A stretch of 32,000 nucleotides of DNA from Candidatus Electronema aureum (GCA_004284765.1 NQJD01000001.1:60001-92000), one strand, 5' to 3'. Positions 7,449-25,186 are shown, numbered from the stretch's first letter. Notes: generated by a model from the sequence alone, not told the origin. Translations and numbers: made by a program.

Positions 7449-8549
7449 TCAGAACAGCTTGATTCCCATGCCATCATCCGAGCTACTGATGAACACACTG
7501 CTGAAGCCCAGCGTTGCTGCTATCCGACGAACAAACTCTGCTTCATTGTTGCAAAAGATTATACTGCCCTGCCACGTAAAACGGTACTCATCTTGGACAT
7601 GATCCAAACAAGTGATGACTAAATGCCTGTTGTTGGTTGAACGCAGCAGTTCATCTCGGTTGATGGCATATTCTACCAAGGAAAGGTCGAGCAGGCTACG
7701 CCGAAACTCTCCTTGATAGCTATTACAGACGTTGGTTTCCTGCGGGTTCGCTTTGATGTTGTGCGGCAGATGCTCGTTGCTCATTGGCCCAGCCCCGTGT
7801 CTGGTCTGGTAGGCGCGGGTGACGAGATAAACCTCAAGCTCTCTGCTGCCATGCAGGGCAACGGCATTGATCGTACCAGTATTCGAGCGCGTCACATAAG
7901 GGAAAAAGCCGAAGTGCTGATCAAGGAGCAGTCCCTGCGAGCCTTCATAGATGTGATCGCTAAAACCGGGCGGTAGTCCCTGCGTGCTGCGGATATACGG
8001 TGAGCTGACCACTGCTGCACAGCAATCAAGAAACGCCTCCACAGAAGCTGCTGCGTATTCTTTATAGAAGAACGTGCGCAACAGGTCAAGGCGGGTCTGA
8101 AGAACCCACGGAGAAAAGAGGTCGGCAAAGGTGAGGGAGTAATACTGCTCCTCTCGATTGAGGGTATTACCCACCCCCACGCCGCAGCTGCCGTGCGGAT
8201 GCTGCTGCCGGTTGCGGGCAATGTCATACGGGGTGGTGACAGGGCATTGCGCGTCAATGTAGAGCAGTGGCTGCACACCCTTAGCGAGCAGTACAGCCAA
8301 TTCGTTGCAGAGGCCAATTGGCTCTATCGTGCAAAAGCGCGAGAAGTACGTTGGTGCGCCTTGCAACGTGCCAGAGCCAAAGTTGGAAAATACATGGCGC
8401 AGGCCGTTTGCGACCACCGTATGACCAGCTTGCTGACCACCAGAGAAACGGATCACCAAGGGTTGTTCGCAGTGCCGACAGAGCCAGTCTGTGACCAGCC
8501 CTTTGCCCTCATCGCCAAAGCCTGCGCCAAGGACGACCTTGCCTTTCAC
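7449..8549 (-). CDS. Short, divergent adenylosuccinate-synthetase-family (PurA/PurZ-like) enzyme
   Basis: 366 aa with a GTG start in a GTGA overlap with the vWA stop. Retained PurA motifs: GFGDEGKG (P-loop with catalytic Asp), GGQQAGHT (catalytic His), YEGSQGLLLDQHFGFFPYVTRSNT and YQTRHGAGP. Diverged motifs: GTTGRGIGP becomes GSCGVGVGN, TTGRRRR becomes YQGEFRR, and TKLD becomes TCLD. It is about 65 aa shorter than E. coli PurA. Confidence 0.8.
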   Translation of the reverse strand: MKGKVVLGAGFGDEGKGLVTDWLCRHCEQPLVIRFSGGQQAGHTVVANGLRHVFSNFGSGTLQGAPTYFSRFCTIEPIGLCNELAVLLAKGVQPLLYIDAQCPVTTPYDIARNRQQHPHGSCGVGVGNTLNREEQYYSLTFADLFSPWVLQTRLDLLRTFFYKEYAAASVEAFLDCCAAVVSSPYIRSTQGLPPGFSDHIYEGSQGLLLDQHFGFFPYVTRSNTGTINAVALHGSRELEVYLVTRAYQTRHGAGPMSNEHLPHNIKANPQETNVCNSYQGEFRRSLLDLSLVEYAINRDELLRSTNNRHLVITCLDHVQDEYRFTWQGSIIFCNNEAEFVRRIAATLGFSSVFISSSDDGMGIKLF

Positions 8550-9409
8550 AAGAGAATCGAGGTCTCTGCTAACCCTGTGGATAGAGAAGGCGCAGCTGGC
8601 TTGGCTGTTGTACGCATAGTCTCTGCGATTAGCTCTGGAATGACCTTCGACACATCCTCGTGTCGATCAAGAATGATAAGCTGATTGCCCATCAGCTGTT
8701 TCCACCCATCCATCGTCTGTTGATTACTGCCTGCGCTGGTTTGGCGAATATGCAAGTGAAAGACGTGATACAGCTCTCTGGCTCTGTCTAAAAGCACTGA
8801 AGCAGAATAATTCTCATACTGTCCGTCGCCCATGATGTGCTTTACTGCCTGCGCAGGCACATCAAGTAAGGTCGGCTCATCGCCAATAGTAAAGAGAAAG
8901 CCCTTCTGTTGCCGTTTCTCAAAGCAATCAATGGAGGTGTGGAACCCGGCAAAGTACCATGCTAACAGATAACTCTCACCGGCATTGCCACCACCGCCAC
9001 CCTCTAAATAGACATCGGTCAGCCACTTATCAAGCAGCTCATCATTCGATTCAAATTGACCCACCTGAAGCGGGCTGTTGTCACACTCGTGGTCTCCTAC
9101 CGCAAGGAAAAGCAACTGTGGATCAGGTGTGCCGCTTTGGATAATCCGACCCATGATCTTCGGCAATCCCTCTTTGACTAAATGATGCGGGATAGAACCC
9201 ATTGAACCAGTTACATCTAAGGCGAGGATAATCGCCACCGAATTAGGATGTTCAGCTGAATCTCTTGCCTCCCTTACCCTAATCCCGTGCGGGTTCATGG
9301 CATTATTGATCGACCGCTGCGTGAATATCTCACGAGCCGACTTAGTACCGTAGCTCAGAGATGCTGCCCGCGTTGCTCGATCATCGACTGAATAGTAGCC
9401 ATGTCCCAT
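8546..9409 (-). CDS. Stand-alone von Willebrand factor A (vWA) domain protein
   Basis: 287 aa. A MIDAS-type motif (IILALDVTGSMG) follows a beta-strand, and later there is FLFTIGDEPT, giving Rossmann-like alternation typical of vWA. The ATG at 9409 is 2 nt after the upstream stop. The gene's own stop overlaps the next start. Confidence 0.75.
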   Translation of the reverse strand: MGHGYYSVDDRATRAASLSYGTKSAREIFTQRSINNAMNPHGIRVREARDSAEHPNSVAIILALDVTGSMGSIPHHLVKEGLPKIMGRIIQSGTPDPQLLFLAVGDHECDNSPLQVGQFESNDELLDKWLTDVYLEGGGGGNAGESYLLAWYFAGFHTSIDCFEKRQQKGFLFTIGDEPTLLDVPAQAVKHIMGDGQYENYSASVLLDRARELYHVFHLHIRQTSAGSNQQTMDGWKQLMGNQLIILDRHEDVSKVIPELIAETMRTTAKPAAPSLSTGLAETSILL

Positions 9410-9411
9410 GA

Positions 9412-9750
9412 TTAGTGTCCTCCAAAGAGATAGTTGTACCGTTGCTTTGCTATTTCCAAAGTAATTTCCGCCTGCCTGATCTTAATACCGAGTTCGATGT
9501 CCTTGGCTACATACTCATCGCAATTGAAATCGCTGGCGAGGATCAGGCTGTGCGCAGAGGTGGGCGAAAGATCAAGCATATTCTCCTGCTCTCGCTGCAT
9601 CTTACGGATACTGATCTCCAAGTCTTCGATCTTGCGCTTATAAACTAACTGCGCATCCTCAGCAATCGCTGCTGCCCGATCTTCGCGAATCTCTTTGTTG
9701 TTGCGCTTCAAGGAACCTATGAAGGCTCCGGTCAGCTCCTTGTCGTCCAT
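9412..9750 (-). CDS. Small helical/coiled-coil protein of unknown function, first gene of the cassette
   Basis: 112 aa with a charged heptad-like sequence (EDAQLVYKRKIEDLEISIRKMQREQENML ... ELGIKIRQAEITLEIAKQRY). A good SD (AAAGGAGA) lies upstream of the ATG at 9750. I do not recognise the family. Confidence 0.6.
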   Translation of the reverse strand: MDDKELTGAFIGSLKRNNKEIREDRAAAIAEDAQLVYKRKIEDLEISIRKMQREQENMLDLSPTSAHSLILASDFNCDEYVAKDIELGIKIRQAEITLEIAKQRYNYLFGGH

Positions 9751-9832
9751 TTTCCGTTCTCCTTTGGTTGCGCCTTACTTTCCAGTTTGAGCTTAACTAC
9801 GGCGTATAACTCCTGAAACGGGATGATCAGCC

Positions 9833-9861
9833 AGAGTAGAGCAGTGACAGGAATTTGTCAA
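9833..9861 (-). promoter_or_regulatory. Putative sigma70-type promoter for the coiled-coil/vWA/PurA-like operon
   Basis: On the minus strand: TTGACA (9861..9856), a 17-nt spacer, then TACTCT (9838..9833), about 80 nt upstream of the ATG at 9750. The -35 is perfect and the -10 is a partial match (T1, A2, T6). Confidence 0.4.
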
Positions 9862-9889
9862 GAGGAATGTGGAGCTGTCTCTATCTGAA

Positions 9890-9999
9890 GAGCTACACCC
9901 GTAGCTCTGGGGGAGCATACTGCTATGCTCTTACCGAGCATACTACTATGCTCCCAAAGAGGATAACGTTATGCTCTTGAGGAGGATAGTGGTATCCTC
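9890..9999. promoter_or_regulatory. Array of five 18-bp palindromes (7-4-7 architecture, GAG-N12-CTC) at an exact 23-bp period
   Basis: The units start at 9890, 9913, 9936, 9959 and 9982. They read GAGCTAC-ACCC-GTAGCTC, GAGCATA-CTGC-TATGCTC, GAGCATA-CTAC-TATGCTC, GAGGATA-ACGT-TATGCTC (hybrid arms, one mismatch) and GAGGATA-GTGG-TATCCTC. The array lies in the divergent intergenic region between the cassette and the Roco gene. Confidence 0.85.
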
Positions 10000-10052
10000 T
10001 TTGCGTTGCATAGGTTATAGAGCAAGATTCGTTCGAGGCATGATGACAGGCC

Positions 10053-10080
10053 GTAGGGACACGACATGTCGTGTCCCTAC
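10053..10080. repeat. 28-bp perfect palindrome, a member of a dispersed GTAGGG..CCCTAC palindromic family
   Basis: GTAGGGACACGACA|TGTCGTGTCCCTAC, 14+14 with no loop, 22 nt upstream of the Roco SD. Its arm ends match the palindromes at 25269..25322 and 25484..25511. Confidence 0.8.
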
Positions 10081-10117
10081 ATGGTTGCGGCAATAACACC
10101 CACGGAGGAACAAGGCA

Positions 10118-12001
10118 ATGAGCAAAGAAGATGCGTTGTGGAGGATTAAAAACGCGGCGAAGACAGGGGTAACAGTGCTTGATCTTGGCCAACAAGGATT
10201 AACCGAGCTGCCGCCAGAACTCTTTCAACTCACCAATCTCACCGCGCTTAACCTCTACAGCAATCAGCTTACCACTCTGCCGCCAGAAATCATACAGCTA
10301 ACCAAGTTAAGGCAGCTTTATCTTTACAACAACCCCCTCATCTCCCCACCTTACGAACTTGCTGTCCAAGGCATAGAAGCCATACGCGAATACTTCGCCG
10401 AAGTGGAAGGCGAGACCAAGGAAGTGGCAGAGGTCAAGGTCATCCTTGTAGGCGAAGGCGCATCAGGCAAGACCTCGCTCACCCGCTGCCTGAAAGGTGA
10501 GCCGTTCGACAAGCACGAGCCTACCACCCACGGCATCAGGATTGAGGAACTGACCCTCGCAGGCCCATCCCGGTCAATCCGCTGCAAGCTGTGGGACTTC
10601 GGCGGCCAGGAGATCATGCACGCCACGCACCAGTTTTTCCTCTCTCGCCGCAGCCTGTACGTTCTTGTCCTCGACGGCAGGCGCGACGAGCGGCCCGAAC
10701 ACTGGCTGCGCTACATCGAAACCTTCGGCGGCAGCTCGCCCGTCTTAGTTGTGCTCAACAAGTACGACACCAATCCCAGCTTTGATCTCAACCAGCGTTT
10801 TCTGAAAGAGAAATACCCGTTCATTGTTGATTTCTACCGGACTTCCTGCCCAAGAAACTACGGCATTGAAGAGTTGCGGCAGGCCATGACCGAGGAGCTG
10901 GACAAGCTGCCTATGACCAAGAACCAGTGGCCCATGAGCTGGTTCCGGGTAAAAGCAGAGCTGGAGGAGATGAACAGGCCGTGCATCCGCTACGAGGAGT
11001 TCGAGGGCATCTGCCTCAAAGCAGGCATCAAGGGCAAGACCACCCGCAAAGTGCTGGGGGCGTTCCTGCACGATCTGGGCAGCGTCATTCACTTTGAGGA
11101 CTTTGCCTTGGATGACAATCACGTCCTTGCGCCCAAGTGGGTGACTGGCGCGGTGTATAAGATCATCAATGCCGAACCGCTGGCTGCGAGCAAAGGGCTG
11201 CTCAAGCTCGATGATCTCAAGCAGATACTGGAATGGCAGGAAGGCGACGACTATCCATACTATCCGGGCGATTACGTCTATATCATCGAGCTGATGAAGA
11301 AGTTCGAGCTGTGCTATGAACTCAATGAGAAAGAGGTTCTTATTCCGCAGCTCTTGGGTGTGGCAGAGCCTTCCTTTGCCTTTGCAGAAGAGGGTGCTCT
11401 CCGCTTTGAGCTGCGCTATGAGGACTTCTTTCCGCCTTCCATCATGCCGCGTTTCATTGTCAAACGGCACCATGAGATAAACGACGGTCTGCGCTGGCGC
11501 AGCGGTGTTTTTTTAAAGAATCCCCAGCTTGATGCAAGCGCGGTGGTGCGGGCGGATAACGAGGCGAAGCGCATTCATATCGCCGTGACCGGCAAGGAGC
11601 GCAAAGTCTTCCTCGCCCTGATTTGGCTCACCTTGCGGGAAATCAATTCCGGCTTTGAAGGCTTGAAGGTGAGCGAAGAGGTCTGCATACCAGGTCAGCC
11701 CGACATCACTGTTGATTACGAGACTCTGCTCAACAGCCAGAAAGAAGGCATCCCAAAGATTTTCCCAAAAGGTGCGGAAAAGGCATACACCGTGCAAGAG
11801 CTGCTCGATAGTGTGCATTTCGATAATCCGAGCGAGGGAAAAAGAATGATTGCCTTGGCGGAAGGAGAAAGGAAGGTTGGAGCAGTAAACAAAACAGGCA
11901 CGGCGTTGAACACCATGTTCAAACTGGAACCTTCAGTGTTTGGCGTAGGAATCAACCTCAATGCTGTGTTCGATTATCTGCTGAAAAGGGAGAGGAAATA
12001 A
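10118..12001 (+). CDS. Roco-family protein: N-terminal leucine-rich repeats, a Roc (Ras-of-complex) GTPase and a COR domain
   Basis: 627 aa with SD GGAGGA upstream. LRRs: LTELPPELFQLTNLTALNLYSNQLTTLPPEIIQLTKLRQLYLYNNPL. GTPase motifs: G1 GEGASGKTS (10451..), G3 DFGGQE (10595..) and G4 NKYD (10757..). COR-like sequence: WFRVKAELEEM...FLHDLGSVIHFED...LAPKWVTGAVYKIIN. Confidence 0.88.
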   Translation: MSKEDALWRIKNAAKTGVTVLDLGQQGLTELPPELFQLTNLTALNLYSNQLTTLPPEIIQLTKLRQLYLYNNPLISPPYELAVQGIEAIREYFAEVEGETKEVAEVKVILVGEGASGKTSLTRCLKGEPFDKHEPTTHGIRIEELTLAGPSRSIRCKLWDFGGQEIMHATHQFFLSRRSLYVLVLDGRRDERPEHWLRYIETFGGSSPVLVVLNKYDTNPSFDLNQRFLKEKYPFIVDFYRTSCPRNYGIEELRQAMTEELDKLPMTKNQWPMSWFRVKAELEEMNRPCIRYEEFEGICLKAGIKGKTTRKVLGAFLHDLGSVIHFEDFALDDNHVLAPKWVTGAVYKIINAEPLAASKGLLKLDDLKQILEWQEGDDYPYYPGDYVYIIELMKKFELCYELNEKEVLIPQLLGVAEPSFAFAEEGALRFELRYEDFFPPSIMPRFIVKRHHEINDGLRWRSGVFLKNPQLDASAVVRADNEAKRIHIAVTGKERKVFLALIWLTLREINSGFEGLKVSEEVCIPGQPDITVDYETLLNSQKEGIPKIFPKGAEKAYTVQELLDSVHFDNPSEGKRMIALAEGERKVGAVNKTGTALNTMFKLEPSVFGVGINLNAVFDYLLKRERK

Positions 12002-22579: not shown

Positions 22580-25186
22580 TCAGCCGACCAGCCCGTTGAT
22601 CAGGGACTTGGTCATATTGACCGCCTTGGGATGACGCATGATCAGCACTTCGCCGCCAGCCATCAACATGCAGGAGGCTGTGACCGCCTCCATCATGATG
22701 CCGCGCCGCTCCTGATCGCCCATCATCGCATCGCTGGGCAGGCCAGCCTCCTTGGTCTTCCAGACTTCGCGGCCCAAGTTGCAGATGAGCGGCACTTGCA
22801 GCTTCTCGTCTTTCTGGGTGAGAGCGGCGAGGCGGATGCGCTCCATGACCGAGTAGGTGTACTCAATGCCGTAGCCGAGCGCGCCGACCGAGGGATCCAT
22901 CAGCACGGTGTCGAGACCCACGCCAAGGTTCTCCAGTAGGATGTTGAGCTGCTTGGCAAGGTTCACGTCAATCGGCGAAGCGGCCACCACTGGGTAGCGG
23001 AAGGCCATTGCGGTCGCGCCGATGGAGCGGTAGTTGCTGTCCTCCAGCGGGGCCAGGCAGACCTTCTTATCGCCGATCATCGAGGTGACTTCGCGCAGAG
23101 TCTCGGTGTCCTTGTCGGCATTGCCGCAGCCCCAGACGATCACTGGCACGTCAATGGCCTGAATCACCTTGGCCGCATCTTGCGCCGCATCCTTGGCCGG
23201 ACGGTTCGCGCCGTTGGGATCCGTGCCAGCCAGCCAGATGTTGATCGCGTCAGCCTTATAAACATCCACGCACTTGCGCGCCCAAGCCACCGGGTCGCTC
23301 ATCACGTCCTCGAAATGCCTGCTCAGGGTCTGCGGCCAGTTGTCGGGACGGATGTCCATCACTTCCATCGCGATCAACGGCTTGTTCTTCATCGCCCCTT
23401 CAAAGAGATGGAAAGGCAAGGAGGTCGAGCCGCCCACGGTCACGGTCTTGCCGCCGTTGCCGAGGGTCACTTCGCGAATTGTGCCGGAGTAGTTGACCTT
23501 GTACGACGAGGCAGGCACCTTGGCTGCGCGTTCCGCAAAGGGGGCTTCGCCGGTTGCTAATGCCGGAGCCGCAAAGTCAGCCGAAGCAGCAGCCGGGGCA
23601 GGCTTAACTGCTGCCGCAACTTTCGCAGCTGCTTCTGCGGCGGCTTTTGCCTTGGCCTCTGCTTCCGCCTTCAACTTGGCTTCCGCATCTGCCTTCGCCT
23701 TTGTCTCGGCTTCAGCCTTCGCTTTGGCCGCAGCCTCTTCCTTGGCTTCTGTCTCTGCCGCTGCTTTTGCGGCTGCATCCGCCTCAGCCTTCAATTTGGC
23801 CTCTGCTGCTGCCTTGGTTGCCGAGTCATCCACAACCGGAGCTGCCGGAGCGACCGGCGCAGCCGCAACTGGCTTCTTGGCGCAGCATTCCGGCTCGCGT
23901 TTGAGGACAGCCTCAGCCCTGGCAAAGTTCATCAGGGCCTCGAACTGATCATCGCTCAGGCCGTAGGCCGCCTTCAATGCCTTCAGCCCCACGCTGACCG
24001 AATCCAAGGCCAGCAGGCGTTCCTTCTCATTCATCTCATGCTCTCCCGCATCATCTGCCGCAGGCGCGGCAGGGTTAATCTCTGCCCCAACCTGCGGACG
24101 GGCGGCGGCAATGGCCTCCGCTTCGGCACGGGCTGCGGCTATAATCTTCTCGGCTTCGGCCTTGGCCTGATTGAGCAGCTCATCAGCCGCCGCGCCGCGC
24201 ACCTCAATGGTCTCGGCAACAGGGGCCGCGCTCTCTTTGACAGGCTGAACAGCGGCGGCATCCTCAGCAAAGGTCGGACGGGGCAACAGACCGGCCTTCT
24301 CGCAGATTTCGCCGACCGCCTCCTCCCACTCAATCGCCATGACATGGACACCAGCCACGCCCGGAATCTCCTTGACCTGATTGATGATGTCAACGCAGAT
24401 GTTGATGCCTTCCTGCTTCTGGTTCTTTGCGCCCTTCATCCGCTCGATCACTGCGTCGGTCACATCCATGCCCGGCACGAACTTCTTCATGTAGTTCGCC
24501 ATGCCCAAGGACTTGGGCGGAGTCACACCGGCGAGGATGTAGGCCTTCTCGGTCAGGCCGAGGTCGCGGGCCTGCTTCATGAACTCCGCAAACTTCTCAA
24601 CGTTGTAGATGATCTGGGTCTGGATGAAGTCCGCACCATTGGCGATCTTCTTGCCCATGCGCACGGCCCGGAACTCGAACGGCCAGGCAAAGGGGTTGGC
24701 CGCCGCGCCGAGGAAGAGCTGCGGGGCCGTGCCCTTCAGCTCCTCGCCGCATTGAAACTTCTTCGCGTCGCGTAAGTCCCGCATCATGCCGAGCATCTGG
24801 ATCGAGTCCATGTCGAACACGCCCTTGGAGCCGGGATGATTGCCGAACTTCTGGTGGTCGCCCGTCAGGCAGAGGAGGTTCTTCAGGCCCAAGGCGGAGG
24901 CCGCCAAGATGTCGGACTGCATCGCGATCCGGTTGCGGTCGCGGCAGGTCATCTGGATGACCGGCTCCACGCCCTCAGCTTGGGCCAGCAGGCCCGCGCC
25001 GATAGACGACATGCGCACAATGGCGGTCTGGCAGTCGGTGATGTTGACCGCATCCACCTTGCCCTTGAGCAGCCTCGCCTTGGCGCGGACCACCTCCGGG
25101 TCACTGTTCTTCGGCGGCCCCAGCTCGCCCGTGACGGCGAACTGGCCGCTGCGGAGCACCCGCTCCAAATTGCTCCCTGATTTCAT
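22580..25186 (-). CDS. metF-acsD: Fusion: methylenetetrahydrofolate reductase (MetF), a ~255-aa Ala/Lys/Glu/Pro-rich linker, and the corrinoid Fe-S protein small subunit (AcsD/CdhD-like)
   Basis: 868 aa with SD AAGGAGGA. Residues 1-~303 (nt 25186..24278) are MTHFR-like: FAVTGELGPPK, VDAVNITDCQTA, IQMTCRDRNR, NLLCLTGDH, FLGAAANPF, ADFIQTQIIYN. Residues ~455-530 (nt 23824..23597) are an AEAKLKAEADAAAKAAAETEAKEEAAAKAKAEAETKAKADAEAKLKAEAEAKAKAAAE repeat. Residues ~561-868 are AcsD-like: VTVGGSTSLPFHLFEG, PLIAMEVMD, INIWLAGTDPNG, VPVIVWGCGN, MDPSVGALGYGIEYTYSVMERIRLAAL. Confidence 0.88.
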   Translation of the reverse strand: MKSGSNLERVLRSGQFAVTGELGPPKNSDPEVVRAKARLLKGKVDAVNITDCQTAIVRMSSIGAGLLAQAEGVEPVIQMTCRDRNRIAMQSDILAASALGLKNLLCLTGDHQKFGNHPGSKGVFDMDSIQMLGMMRDLRDAKKFQCGEELKGTAPQLFLGAAANPFAWPFEFRAVRMGKKIANGADFIQTQIIYNVEKFAEFMKQARDLGLTEKAYILAGVTPPKSLGMANYMKKFVPGMDVTDAVIERMKGAKNQKQEGINICVDIINQVKEIPGVAGVHVMAIEWEEAVGEICEKAGLLPRPTFAEDAAAVQPVKESAAPVAETIEVRGAAADELLNQAKAEAEKIIAAARAEAEAIAAARPQVGAEINPAAPAADDAGEHEMNEKERLLALDSVSVGLKALKAAYGLSDDQFEALMNFARAEAVLKREPECCAKKPVAAAPVAPAAPVVDDSATKAAAEAKLKAEADAAAKAAAETEAKEEAAAKAKAEAETKAKADAEAKLKAEAEAKAKAAAEAAAKVAAAVKPAPAAASADFAAPALATGEAPFAERAAKVPASSYKVNYSGTIREVTLGNGGKTVTVGGSTSLPFHLFEGAMKNKPLIAMEVMDIRPDNWPQTLSRHFEDVMSDPVAWARKCVDVYKADAINIWLAGTDPNGANRPAKDAAQDAAKVIQAIDVPVIVWGCGNADKDTETLREVTSMIGDKKVCLAPLEDSNYRSIGATAMAFRYPVVAASPIDVNLAKQLNILLENLGVGLDTVLMDPSVGALGYGIEYTYSVMERIRLAALTQKDEKLQVPLICNLGREVWKTKEAGLPSDAMMGDQERRGIMMEAVTASCMLMAGGEVLIMRHPKAVNMTKSLINGLVG

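Follow-up and report, generated by a model that had tools for sequence, protein, structure and literature searches.

A stretch of 32,000 nucleotides from Candidatus Electronema aureum (GCA_004284765.1 NQJD01000001.1:60001-92000; hereafter the window) contains, at positions 9890-9999, an array of five 23-bp units, each composed of an 18-bp dyad-symmetric core and a 5-bp spacer. Sequence comparison identifies this array as the local copy of a dispersed repeat family specific to cable bacteria (Desulfobulbaceae). We tentatively regard it as a row of in-phase, symmetric half-site pairs that a DNA-binding dimer of the host would occupy, lying at about -64 to -173 of the presumed promoter of an adjoining gene cassette. 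We would put the chances of this reading somewhat below even.

The units start at 9890, 9913, 9936, 9959 and 9982, at an exact period of 23 bp, and all have the architecture 7-nt arm, 4-nt centre, 7-nt arm with an invariant outer GAG...CTC, exactly as had been claimed in the earlier note on this DNA. Unit 1 (9890-9907; GAGCTAC-ACCC-GTAGCTC), which is the closest to the cassette promoter, has an odd arm type that appears in relatives as GAGCTAC..GTAGTTC or GTGCTAC..GTAGCTC. Like unit 1, unit 2 (9913-9930; GAGCATA-CTGC-TATGCTC), unit 3 (9936-9953; GAGCATA-CTAC-TATGCTC) and unit 5 (9982-9999; GAGGATA-GTGG-TATCCTC) are complementary at 7 of 7 arm positions. Unit 4 (9959-9976; GAGGATA-ACGT-TATGCTC) is complementary at 6 of 7 and was correctly recognized as a hybrid of arm types. 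The spacers between the units are exactly 5 nt long (TGGGG, TTACC, CCAAA and TTGAG), and a TTTGCG end motif that is also found at other arrays follows directly after unit 5. The coordinates are given without a strand; the canonical family orientation of the array is the minus strand, as judged by comparison with loci L006, L084 and L092 (C-form hybrids of the type GAGC...CCTC, spacers ctcaa/cccca).

This five-unit regularity far exceeds chance. Perfect 7-4-7 palindromes number 12 in the whole 32-kb window; four of them are array units and one more is contained in a separate palindrome of 28 bp. A run detector covering periods of 18-30 returned a single array, of period 23. Tandem Repeats Finder at default settings missed it because the units are too diverged. 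No leader, tail, TIR, flank homology or flanking/target duplication was found around the array. Two Logan contigs that are 100% identical to the window (L118 and L119) both terminate at window position 9973, within unit 4, which is consistent with an assembly-graph break at repeated sequence.

Next to unit 1, on the minus strand, lies a putative sigma-70-type promoter (9833-9861) with TTGACA at 9861-9856, a 17-bp spacer and TACTCT at 9838-9833. Because a strict promoter/terminator consensus scan of 9300-10500 gave no match, we infer this cassette promoter from its perfect TTGACA, its 17-bp spacing and its conservation; the promoter core is kept in three lineages of cable bacteria, whether or not an array is present. 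The array edge is 28 bp upstream of the presumed -35 hexamer, and the Roco ATG at 10118 is 119 bp from the array, so that the distances given in the earlier note (just upstream of the -35, about 120 bp to Roco) were correct. If transcription starts near 9826, the array would extend from about -64 to -173. In the window the units and the -35 hexamer share one register; in L127 the hexamer is 2 bp off, and we therefore take the shared register as a coincidence. No convincing candidate for a plus-strand promoter was seen upstream of the array.

The minus-strand genes following the promoter encode a helical 112-aa protein without known domain (9750-9412), which is not part of the repeat family, then a 287-aa vWA-like protein with a DxTGS motif, a PurA-like protein and a PHP-UvrD helicase. 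On the plus strand, a perfect 28-bp palindrome (10053-10080) is followed by an LRR-Roc-COR (Roco) protein from 10118. No DNA-binding domain was found in the products of the flanking genes (Pfam, NCBIfam, PADLOC and PDB sequence search), in agreement with the earlier remark that no classical DNA-binding regulator is encoded nearby, and a sequence search of the 112-aa and vWA proteins against PDB chains yielded no matches.

The three-gene cassette itself (7449-9750, minus strand; 112-aa helical, 287-aa vWA-like and PurA-like proteins) stands out for its conservation and wide distribution. Homologues of the 112-aa protein number 958, from Desulfobulbaceae and gammaproteobacteria, and those examined are 66-95% identical; the best ones with a name belong to Candidatus Electrothrix and Electronema, which places the window in cable bacteria. 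In several cable bacteria the cassette comes directly after psd. The vWA protein matches phrog_2971, the PurA-like protein matches the PurZ-like phage family phrog_1211, and the PHP-UvrD helicase, which is GajB-like, is joined to the cassette only in the lineage of the window. The palindrome at 10053-10080 (GTAGGGACACGACA/TGTCGTGTCCCTAC), between the array and the Roco start, is replaced in L121 and L122 by a longer composite, GTAGGGGCAGAC...GTCTGCCC...GGGCGGCC...GGCCGCCCCTAC, which amounts to two hairpins bracketed by GTAG/CTAC. By its sequence this element looks like one of the REP/REPIN type; it is the most variable intergenic part, with variation in 53 of 118 columns. The LRR region of Roco differs in copy number among close relatives (window 10208-10305 versus L117 2060-2295 and L121 249-419), with additional copies, in tandem, of a segment measuring about 70-98 bp; the called Roc gene of L117 is only 160 aa long and may be disrupted. 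Elsewhere in the window, a 24-bp tandem repeat at 23651-23720 (2.9 copies, 73% match) lies within a long minus-strand ORF (22580-25186) and is probably a coding repeat.

The wider family was sought with the pattern (GAG-N12-CTC-N5)x3, which fixes the period at 23 bp, in one genome per species. At least 116 loci matched. The search for GAG-N12-CTC at a 23-bp period that had been proposed in the earlier note thus found the motif elsewhere: the matches listed include 21 loci in about 11 assemblies of cable bacteria (Ca. Electronema, Ca. Electrothrix and Desulfobulbaceae MAGs), with at least 2-5 loci in single assemblies and 3-8 dyad-symmetric units with variable arms per locus. Many other listed matches are ordinary 23-bp tandem repeats without dyad symmetry, from actinomycetes, Bacteroidales and spirochaetes. 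Such GAG...CTC repeats of 23 bp occur in many Bacteroidales (Porphyromonas, Prevotellaceae, Bacteroides and Parabacteroides), and the listed loci outside cable bacteria include L017, L064, L052, L004, L056, L059, L112, L078 and L096; some of the Bacteroidales repeats are probably relatives of the BrickBuilt element considered below. Long arrays with a 23-bp period were also seen in Treponema and Leptonemataceae.

Members of the cable-bacterium family form head-to-tail rows of 3-8 units, always of 23 bp and always with the 18-bp two-fold-symmetric core, and several sequence sub-families are carried per genome. One main sub-family, GAGWBAS-N4-STVWCTC, is found in Electronema-like genomes. The other, GAGSATR-N4-YATSCTC, comprises the array of the window, those of one Desulfobulbaceae MAG (L006, L049, L084 and L090) and one from Ca. 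Electrothrix aarhusensis (L092); the window array aligns with L006 at 71% identity. There was no crossing between the two groups of loci. Across the family, units start with GAG, GAT, GAC or ATA. When Tandem Repeats Finder was run on 235 kb of cable-bacterium DNA, every non-coding minisatellite had a period of 23, including arrays with different sequences outside the search pattern (L054 and L127). In L054, the unit ATACATG-CTAG-CATGTAT-tgccg is repeated 5.7 times and the fully palindromic 23-mer GCTTATGAGTCAGACTCACAAGC three times; fully palindromic arrays of these kinds lie at L054 3532-3661 and 5941-6009 and at L050 232-293, and a GAG-type array stands within a few kb on the same Electronema contig. 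Solo units are very rare: only two were counted in 129 kb, versus 70 units in arrays.

The arrays are found after stop codons, between convergent genes and between divergent genes. Those of the window's sub-family stand beside unrelated genes (sulphur transport, oxoprolinase, radical SAM, periplasmic binding protein), and other array neighbours are TIR/beta-helix and HEPN/MNT genes. No protein family is common to the array-bearing loci, the only recurrent neighbour being the TIR/beta-helix gene, and that at one orthologous locus alone. Six genomes were compared at an orthologous locus where all of them have an array, with four to at least six units and differing unit content. Related arrays are polar: in oriented units, the base after CTC is C in 85% and the centres conform to YNNR, the linkers are C-rich, and the arrays often begin 20-85 nt past the stop codon of a co-oriented gene. 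Homogeneous arrays with the look of recent amplification were seen at L006, L009 and L012. The Electronema-type arrays L054 and L013 and, weakly, L048 are bracketed by directly repeated copies, 32-43 bp long, of the end (3') of the gene before the array; in L054 the two copies lie 94-126 nt before and 18-50 nt after the array. A conserved 'tail', GAGGGTGCTTTCGGGCTG.GAAG, that follows many Electronema-type arrays also resembles the 3' end of the upstream gene. Read from sequence, the flanking duplications and the gene-end-like tail suggest insertion into, or amplification at, the 3' ends of genes.

Rfam matched nothing in the whole window at gathering thresholds and nothing in 9700-10200 under permissive E-values. 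A literature search on cable-bacterium repeats found nothing relevant, and the family appears to be undescribed so far. A phage origin is unlikely, as viral contigs lack the window-type pattern and yield a single, unrelated tandem repeat for the general one; origins as a type III toxin-antitoxin RNA, a CRISPR array or an iteron were rejected on anatomy.

At the cassette promoter, the presence of the array is specific to the window's lineage. Three relatives with 83-95% identical DNA (L117, L121 and L122) retain all five units in register, and about 90 orthologous loci keep the 112-aa/vWA/PurA-like cassette without an array. The latter comprise E. aestuarii, Electrothrix YB6, AR4, MAN1_4, one gammaproteobacterium and 80 metagenomic loci, and the array is also missing at loci whose 112-aa protein is 88-89% identical. 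We therefore rejected the array as a conserved component of the cassette. The earlier note had judged the array well placed to control both divergent units and had singled out the orthologous loci beforehand as the place where that idea could fail; the many arrayless loci, together with similar arrays beside unrelated genes, weaken it. In L210 and L211, the same promoter core stands without an array, with the terminator of an upstream ompA-like gene in its place, so that the array would be dispensable for basal expression. Ca. Electronema sp. TJ and its close relatives (L127 and L217-L220) carry a different five-unit array upstream of the same promoter, at a distance of 26 bp and again with a period of exactly 23 bp. 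Its units (GATGTGC-GAGC-GCACCTC, GACTAGC-ACTC-GCTCCTC twice, GAGCAGC-ACTC-GCTCCTC and GATGTGC-GCCC-GCACATC) are entirely unlike those of the window in sequence.

The variation of the arms had been described as both arms changing together, as expected for selection on a hairpin or cruciform. A clean symmetric switch is seen only in unit 1 (CTAC/GTAG), where the description holds. Overall the effect is weak: when the right arms were permuted among the units of the window, the observed complementarity was reached in 10% of trials, and C or G at arm position 4 varies independently in each arm, giving a hybrid unit 4 in the window and a hybrid unit 2 (GAGGATA/TATGCTC) in three of four relatives. 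The G:G clash at arm position 4 of unit 4 is present in all four relatives. Among the four related sequences, none of the 35 arm pairs has changed on both sides; of the four variable pairs, three lose pairing, one becomes G·U and none is compensated. The same independence was found in 69 Electronema-type units, in which Watson-Crick pairs at variable positions occur at frequencies of 0.51, 0.48 and 0.68, versus 0.47, 0.54 and 0.69 for independent arms. In this set G·U is as frequent as A·C at position 5 (12 each) and shows no excess anywhere; therefore, neither strand is favoured.

Comparison of about 20 arrays revealed that the complementarity of an arm to its own partner equals that to arms of other units. 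A C:C or G:G mismatch in mid-stem is the usual state in the window's sub-family, roughly one unit in two has an A:A, T:T, C:C or G:G mismatch in mid-stem, and centres are found in both orientations inside one array. Single-strand folding of both strands is well below that of shuffled sequences (z = -6.5 and -6.6), and in the minimum-free-energy folds the arms of neighbouring units pair with each other, rather than forming one hairpin per unit. Because the arms vary independently and without covariation, clash in mid-stem and fold across units, these sequence comparisons do not support selection of the arms for hairpin pairing, and the proposal of hairpin or cruciform selection from compensatory changes is thus left unsupported. 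Extrusion of cruciforms with 7-bp arms is, moreover, energetically unlikely.

The arms are nevertheless conserved and not freely drifting. In a comparison of the window with L117, L121 and L122, 4 of 70 sites vary in the arms, 2 of 20 in the centres and 4 of 20 in the spacers, as against 7 of 139 in the promoter and leader and 12 of 39 at four-fold synonymous sites of the adjacent gene (arms versus four-fold sites, Fisher p = 0.001). Spacers and centres are unrelated in sequence between units, no indel was found within arrays, and the only exceptions to the register are a few terminal units offset by 6 nt. A row of dimer sites on duplex DNA would be expected to show this combination of conserved but independent half-sites, centres and spacers of free sequence, and a fixed register.

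On the reading that we tentatively prefer, the array would have been gained upstream of the cassette promoter in the window's lineage and would act, most likely, as double-stranded DNA. Each core would provide two half-sites, about one helical turn apart, for a symmetric dimer, and the fixed 23-bp register would allow contacts between neighbouring dimers. With their centres about 11 bp apart, the two half-sites would face the same side of the helix, and successive units would be 2.2 turns apart, as in lambdoid operators. The binding protein would be a genome-wide host factor encoded away from the array locus and not a regulator private to it, and the protein row, covering the promoter-upstream region given above and the space towards Roco, could modulate transcription. 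Of the readings put forward in the earlier note, the cooperative dimer row is thus still the best fit to the anatomy, with its exact register, its symmetric and independently varying half-sites and its free centres and spacers. Searches of the flanking genes with Pfam, NCBIfam and PADLOC identified no candidate binding protein, and none is encoded nearby.

A close structural parallel for such a row is provided by the lambdoid operators (lambda OR1-3/OL1-3 and the 18-bp sites of P22), which are likewise 17-18-bp two-fold-symmetric sites with variable central bases and with half-site variants that differ from site to site, and whose centre-to-centre distance of 23-24 bp permits pairwise cooperativity of adjacent repressor dimers. 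The phage operators, however, overlap the -35 and -10 elements and occur in threes beside a repressor gene, whereas the window array lies wholly upstream of the presumed -35, has five units (similar arrays have up to eight), is without an adjacent HTH or RHH regulator and belongs to a family with many copies per genome. Some observations fit a dimeric regulator poorly. Many arrays follow closely on stop codons or separate convergent genes, positions at which a promoter is not to be expected, and the C that follows CTC in most units is not explained by a symmetric dimer. Furthermore, since sequence-unrelated sub-families share the same geometry, several proteins would be needed, or else a readout of shape and not of sequence.

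The main rival explanation, which we consider possible but rather doubtful, makes the array a minisatellite, selfish or structural, comparable to REP/BIME or BrickBuilt-MITE elements, in which a palindromic 23-bp unit spreads and multiplies through insertion, slippage or unequal exchange. There would be no dedicated regulator, and effects on the cassette and Roco promoters would be incidental (roadblock, bending, spurious promoter, or gyrase- or IHF-like binding). The diversity of sub-families, the polarity, the sites without an expected promoter and the flanking duplications favour such an origin by insertion and amplification. The arrays are indeed multi-copy, strictly intergenic and lineage-restricted; they vary in unit number at the orthologous locus of six genomes, are polymorphic for presence at the cassette promoter and in L006, L009 and L012 seem freshly amplified, and some have flanking direct duplications or the tail common to Electronema arrays. 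Short imperfect palindromes in many extragenic copies, often after stop codons or between convergent genes, in clusters of fixed spacing and with conserved 'stem' mismatches, are also typical of the RAYT-associated REP/BIME elements of enterobacteria and pseudomonads. Unlike cable-bacterium units, however, REPs carry a 5' GTAG, the RAYT recognition and cleavage site, alternate in orientation and are commonly single, whereas the units described here run head to tail and almost never stand alone; the GTAG...CTAC signature sits on the separate palindrome at 10053-10080 and not on the array units. BIMEs are binding sites for IHF and gyrase, and by analogy a dispersed repeat can serve as a site for a host factor, so that the views of the array as a repeat and as a row of protein sites are compatible. 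A published analogue of the minisatellite is the BrickBuilt element of Porphyromonas gingivalis, with 23-nt tandem repeats in 19 intergenic copies of 1-22.8 repeats, bidirectional promoter activity and IS5-like ends on the MITE that contains it (Klein et al. 2015, PMC4596501). Both repeats are exactly 23 nt long without extra spacer between units, intergenic, multi-copy, variable in number and narrow in lineage, and both are dyad-symmetric, predicted to form stem-loops and close to promoters. BrickBuilt differs in its phylum, in its long leader and tail and in its IS5-like inverted ends GAGACCTTTGCA, none of which the window array has, and it shows no sequence homology to the cable-bacterium units, which for their part have the 7-4-7 symmetric core, free spacers and several sub-families; the Porphyromonas matches L017 and L064 (GAGAGCG-TGTT-TGGGCTC-ttacc) have low dyad symmetry. 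Against the minisatellite speak also the arms, whose rate of change is about one fifth of that at four-fold synonymous sites, with the spacers drifting, the complete lack of indels despite fully diverged spacers and centres, the absence of leader, tail, TIR and flanking duplication at the window array, and the head-to-tail order, missing REP GTAG and rarity of solo units.

A transcribed row of RNA hairpins, with a 7-bp stem, a 4-nt loop and a 5-nt linker, could form a Roco 5'-leader or a stabilizing or processing signal, with the same role in 3' UTRs elsewhere. The folding of both strands far better than shuffles would fit this, as would the strand polarity of linkers and centres, the starts shortly past co-oriented stop codons and the one arm change in relatives that turns G-C into G·U on the minus strand. 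We nevertheless consider it improbable in view of the zero covariation, the mid-stem mismatches in about half of the units, the lack of a G·U over A·C bias on either strand, the best folds joining arms of neighbouring units and the lack of Rfam matches; in addition, the cassette mRNA would exclude the array because the presumed cassette promoter is downstream of it, and a convincing plus-strand promoter upstream of the array was not seen. An operator specific to this locus, through which the 112-aa protein, the vWA protein or a dedicated regulator would control the cassette and Roco, draws on the position of the array, 28 bp from the -35 and 119 bp from the Roco start, and on the second five-unit array at the same promoter in Electronema TJ. 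It is very improbable, given a highly conserved cassette that at about 90 orthologous loci is arrayless, arrays of the same sub-family adjoining unrelated genes and a 112-aa protein without any match to a DNA-binding domain. Hardly credible at all is an iteron- or centromere-like element, integrated or chromosomal, acting in replication control or partition. Plasmid iterons are 17-22-bp repeats with a 22-23-bp period in 3-7 copies, and the geometry of the array matches that of iterons (RK2, pSC101, R6K and P1), with their strict register and copy number, and of arrays like sopC of F, in which each unit has a short inverted repeat bound by a dimer. Iterons, however, are directional and lie beside rep genes and AT-rich DNA, and sopC has a period of 43 bp, whereas the array is dyad-symmetric, has no rep or par gene, DnaA-box cluster or AT-rich stretch nearby, and belongs to a family with many copies per genome at ordinary intergenic sites.

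A further idea, which we regard as unlikely, is that cable bacteria conserve the geometry of these arrays and not their sequence, by means of a system with a 23-bp molecular ruler. The idea arises because unrelated sub-families (GAGWCAC, GAGSATR, ATACATG, GATGTGC, GCTTATGAGTC...) share the 23-bp dyad unit and because two different five-unit arrays stand at the same place upstream of one promoter. Such a ruler might be a protein or filament that recognizes dyad symmetry in DNA in steps of 23 bp, whatever the sequence. Alternatively, it might be a dedicated enzyme that builds the arrays unit by unit, for instance an integrase- or transposase-type activity adding 18-bp mini-elements with 5-bp junctions.

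Cable bacteria, which are uncultured, form multicellular filaments that conduct electricity, and to our knowledge almost nothing is known of their gene regulation or genome dynamics. In these organisms, individual 23-bp arrays should not be taken as private operators of the adjoining genes, and co-regulation of the vWA/PurA-like cassette and Roco through the array should not be assumed. The repeat family accounts for assembly breaks at array sites, and it offers a concrete handle on a global DNA-binding factor or a repeat-generating activity in cable bacteria.
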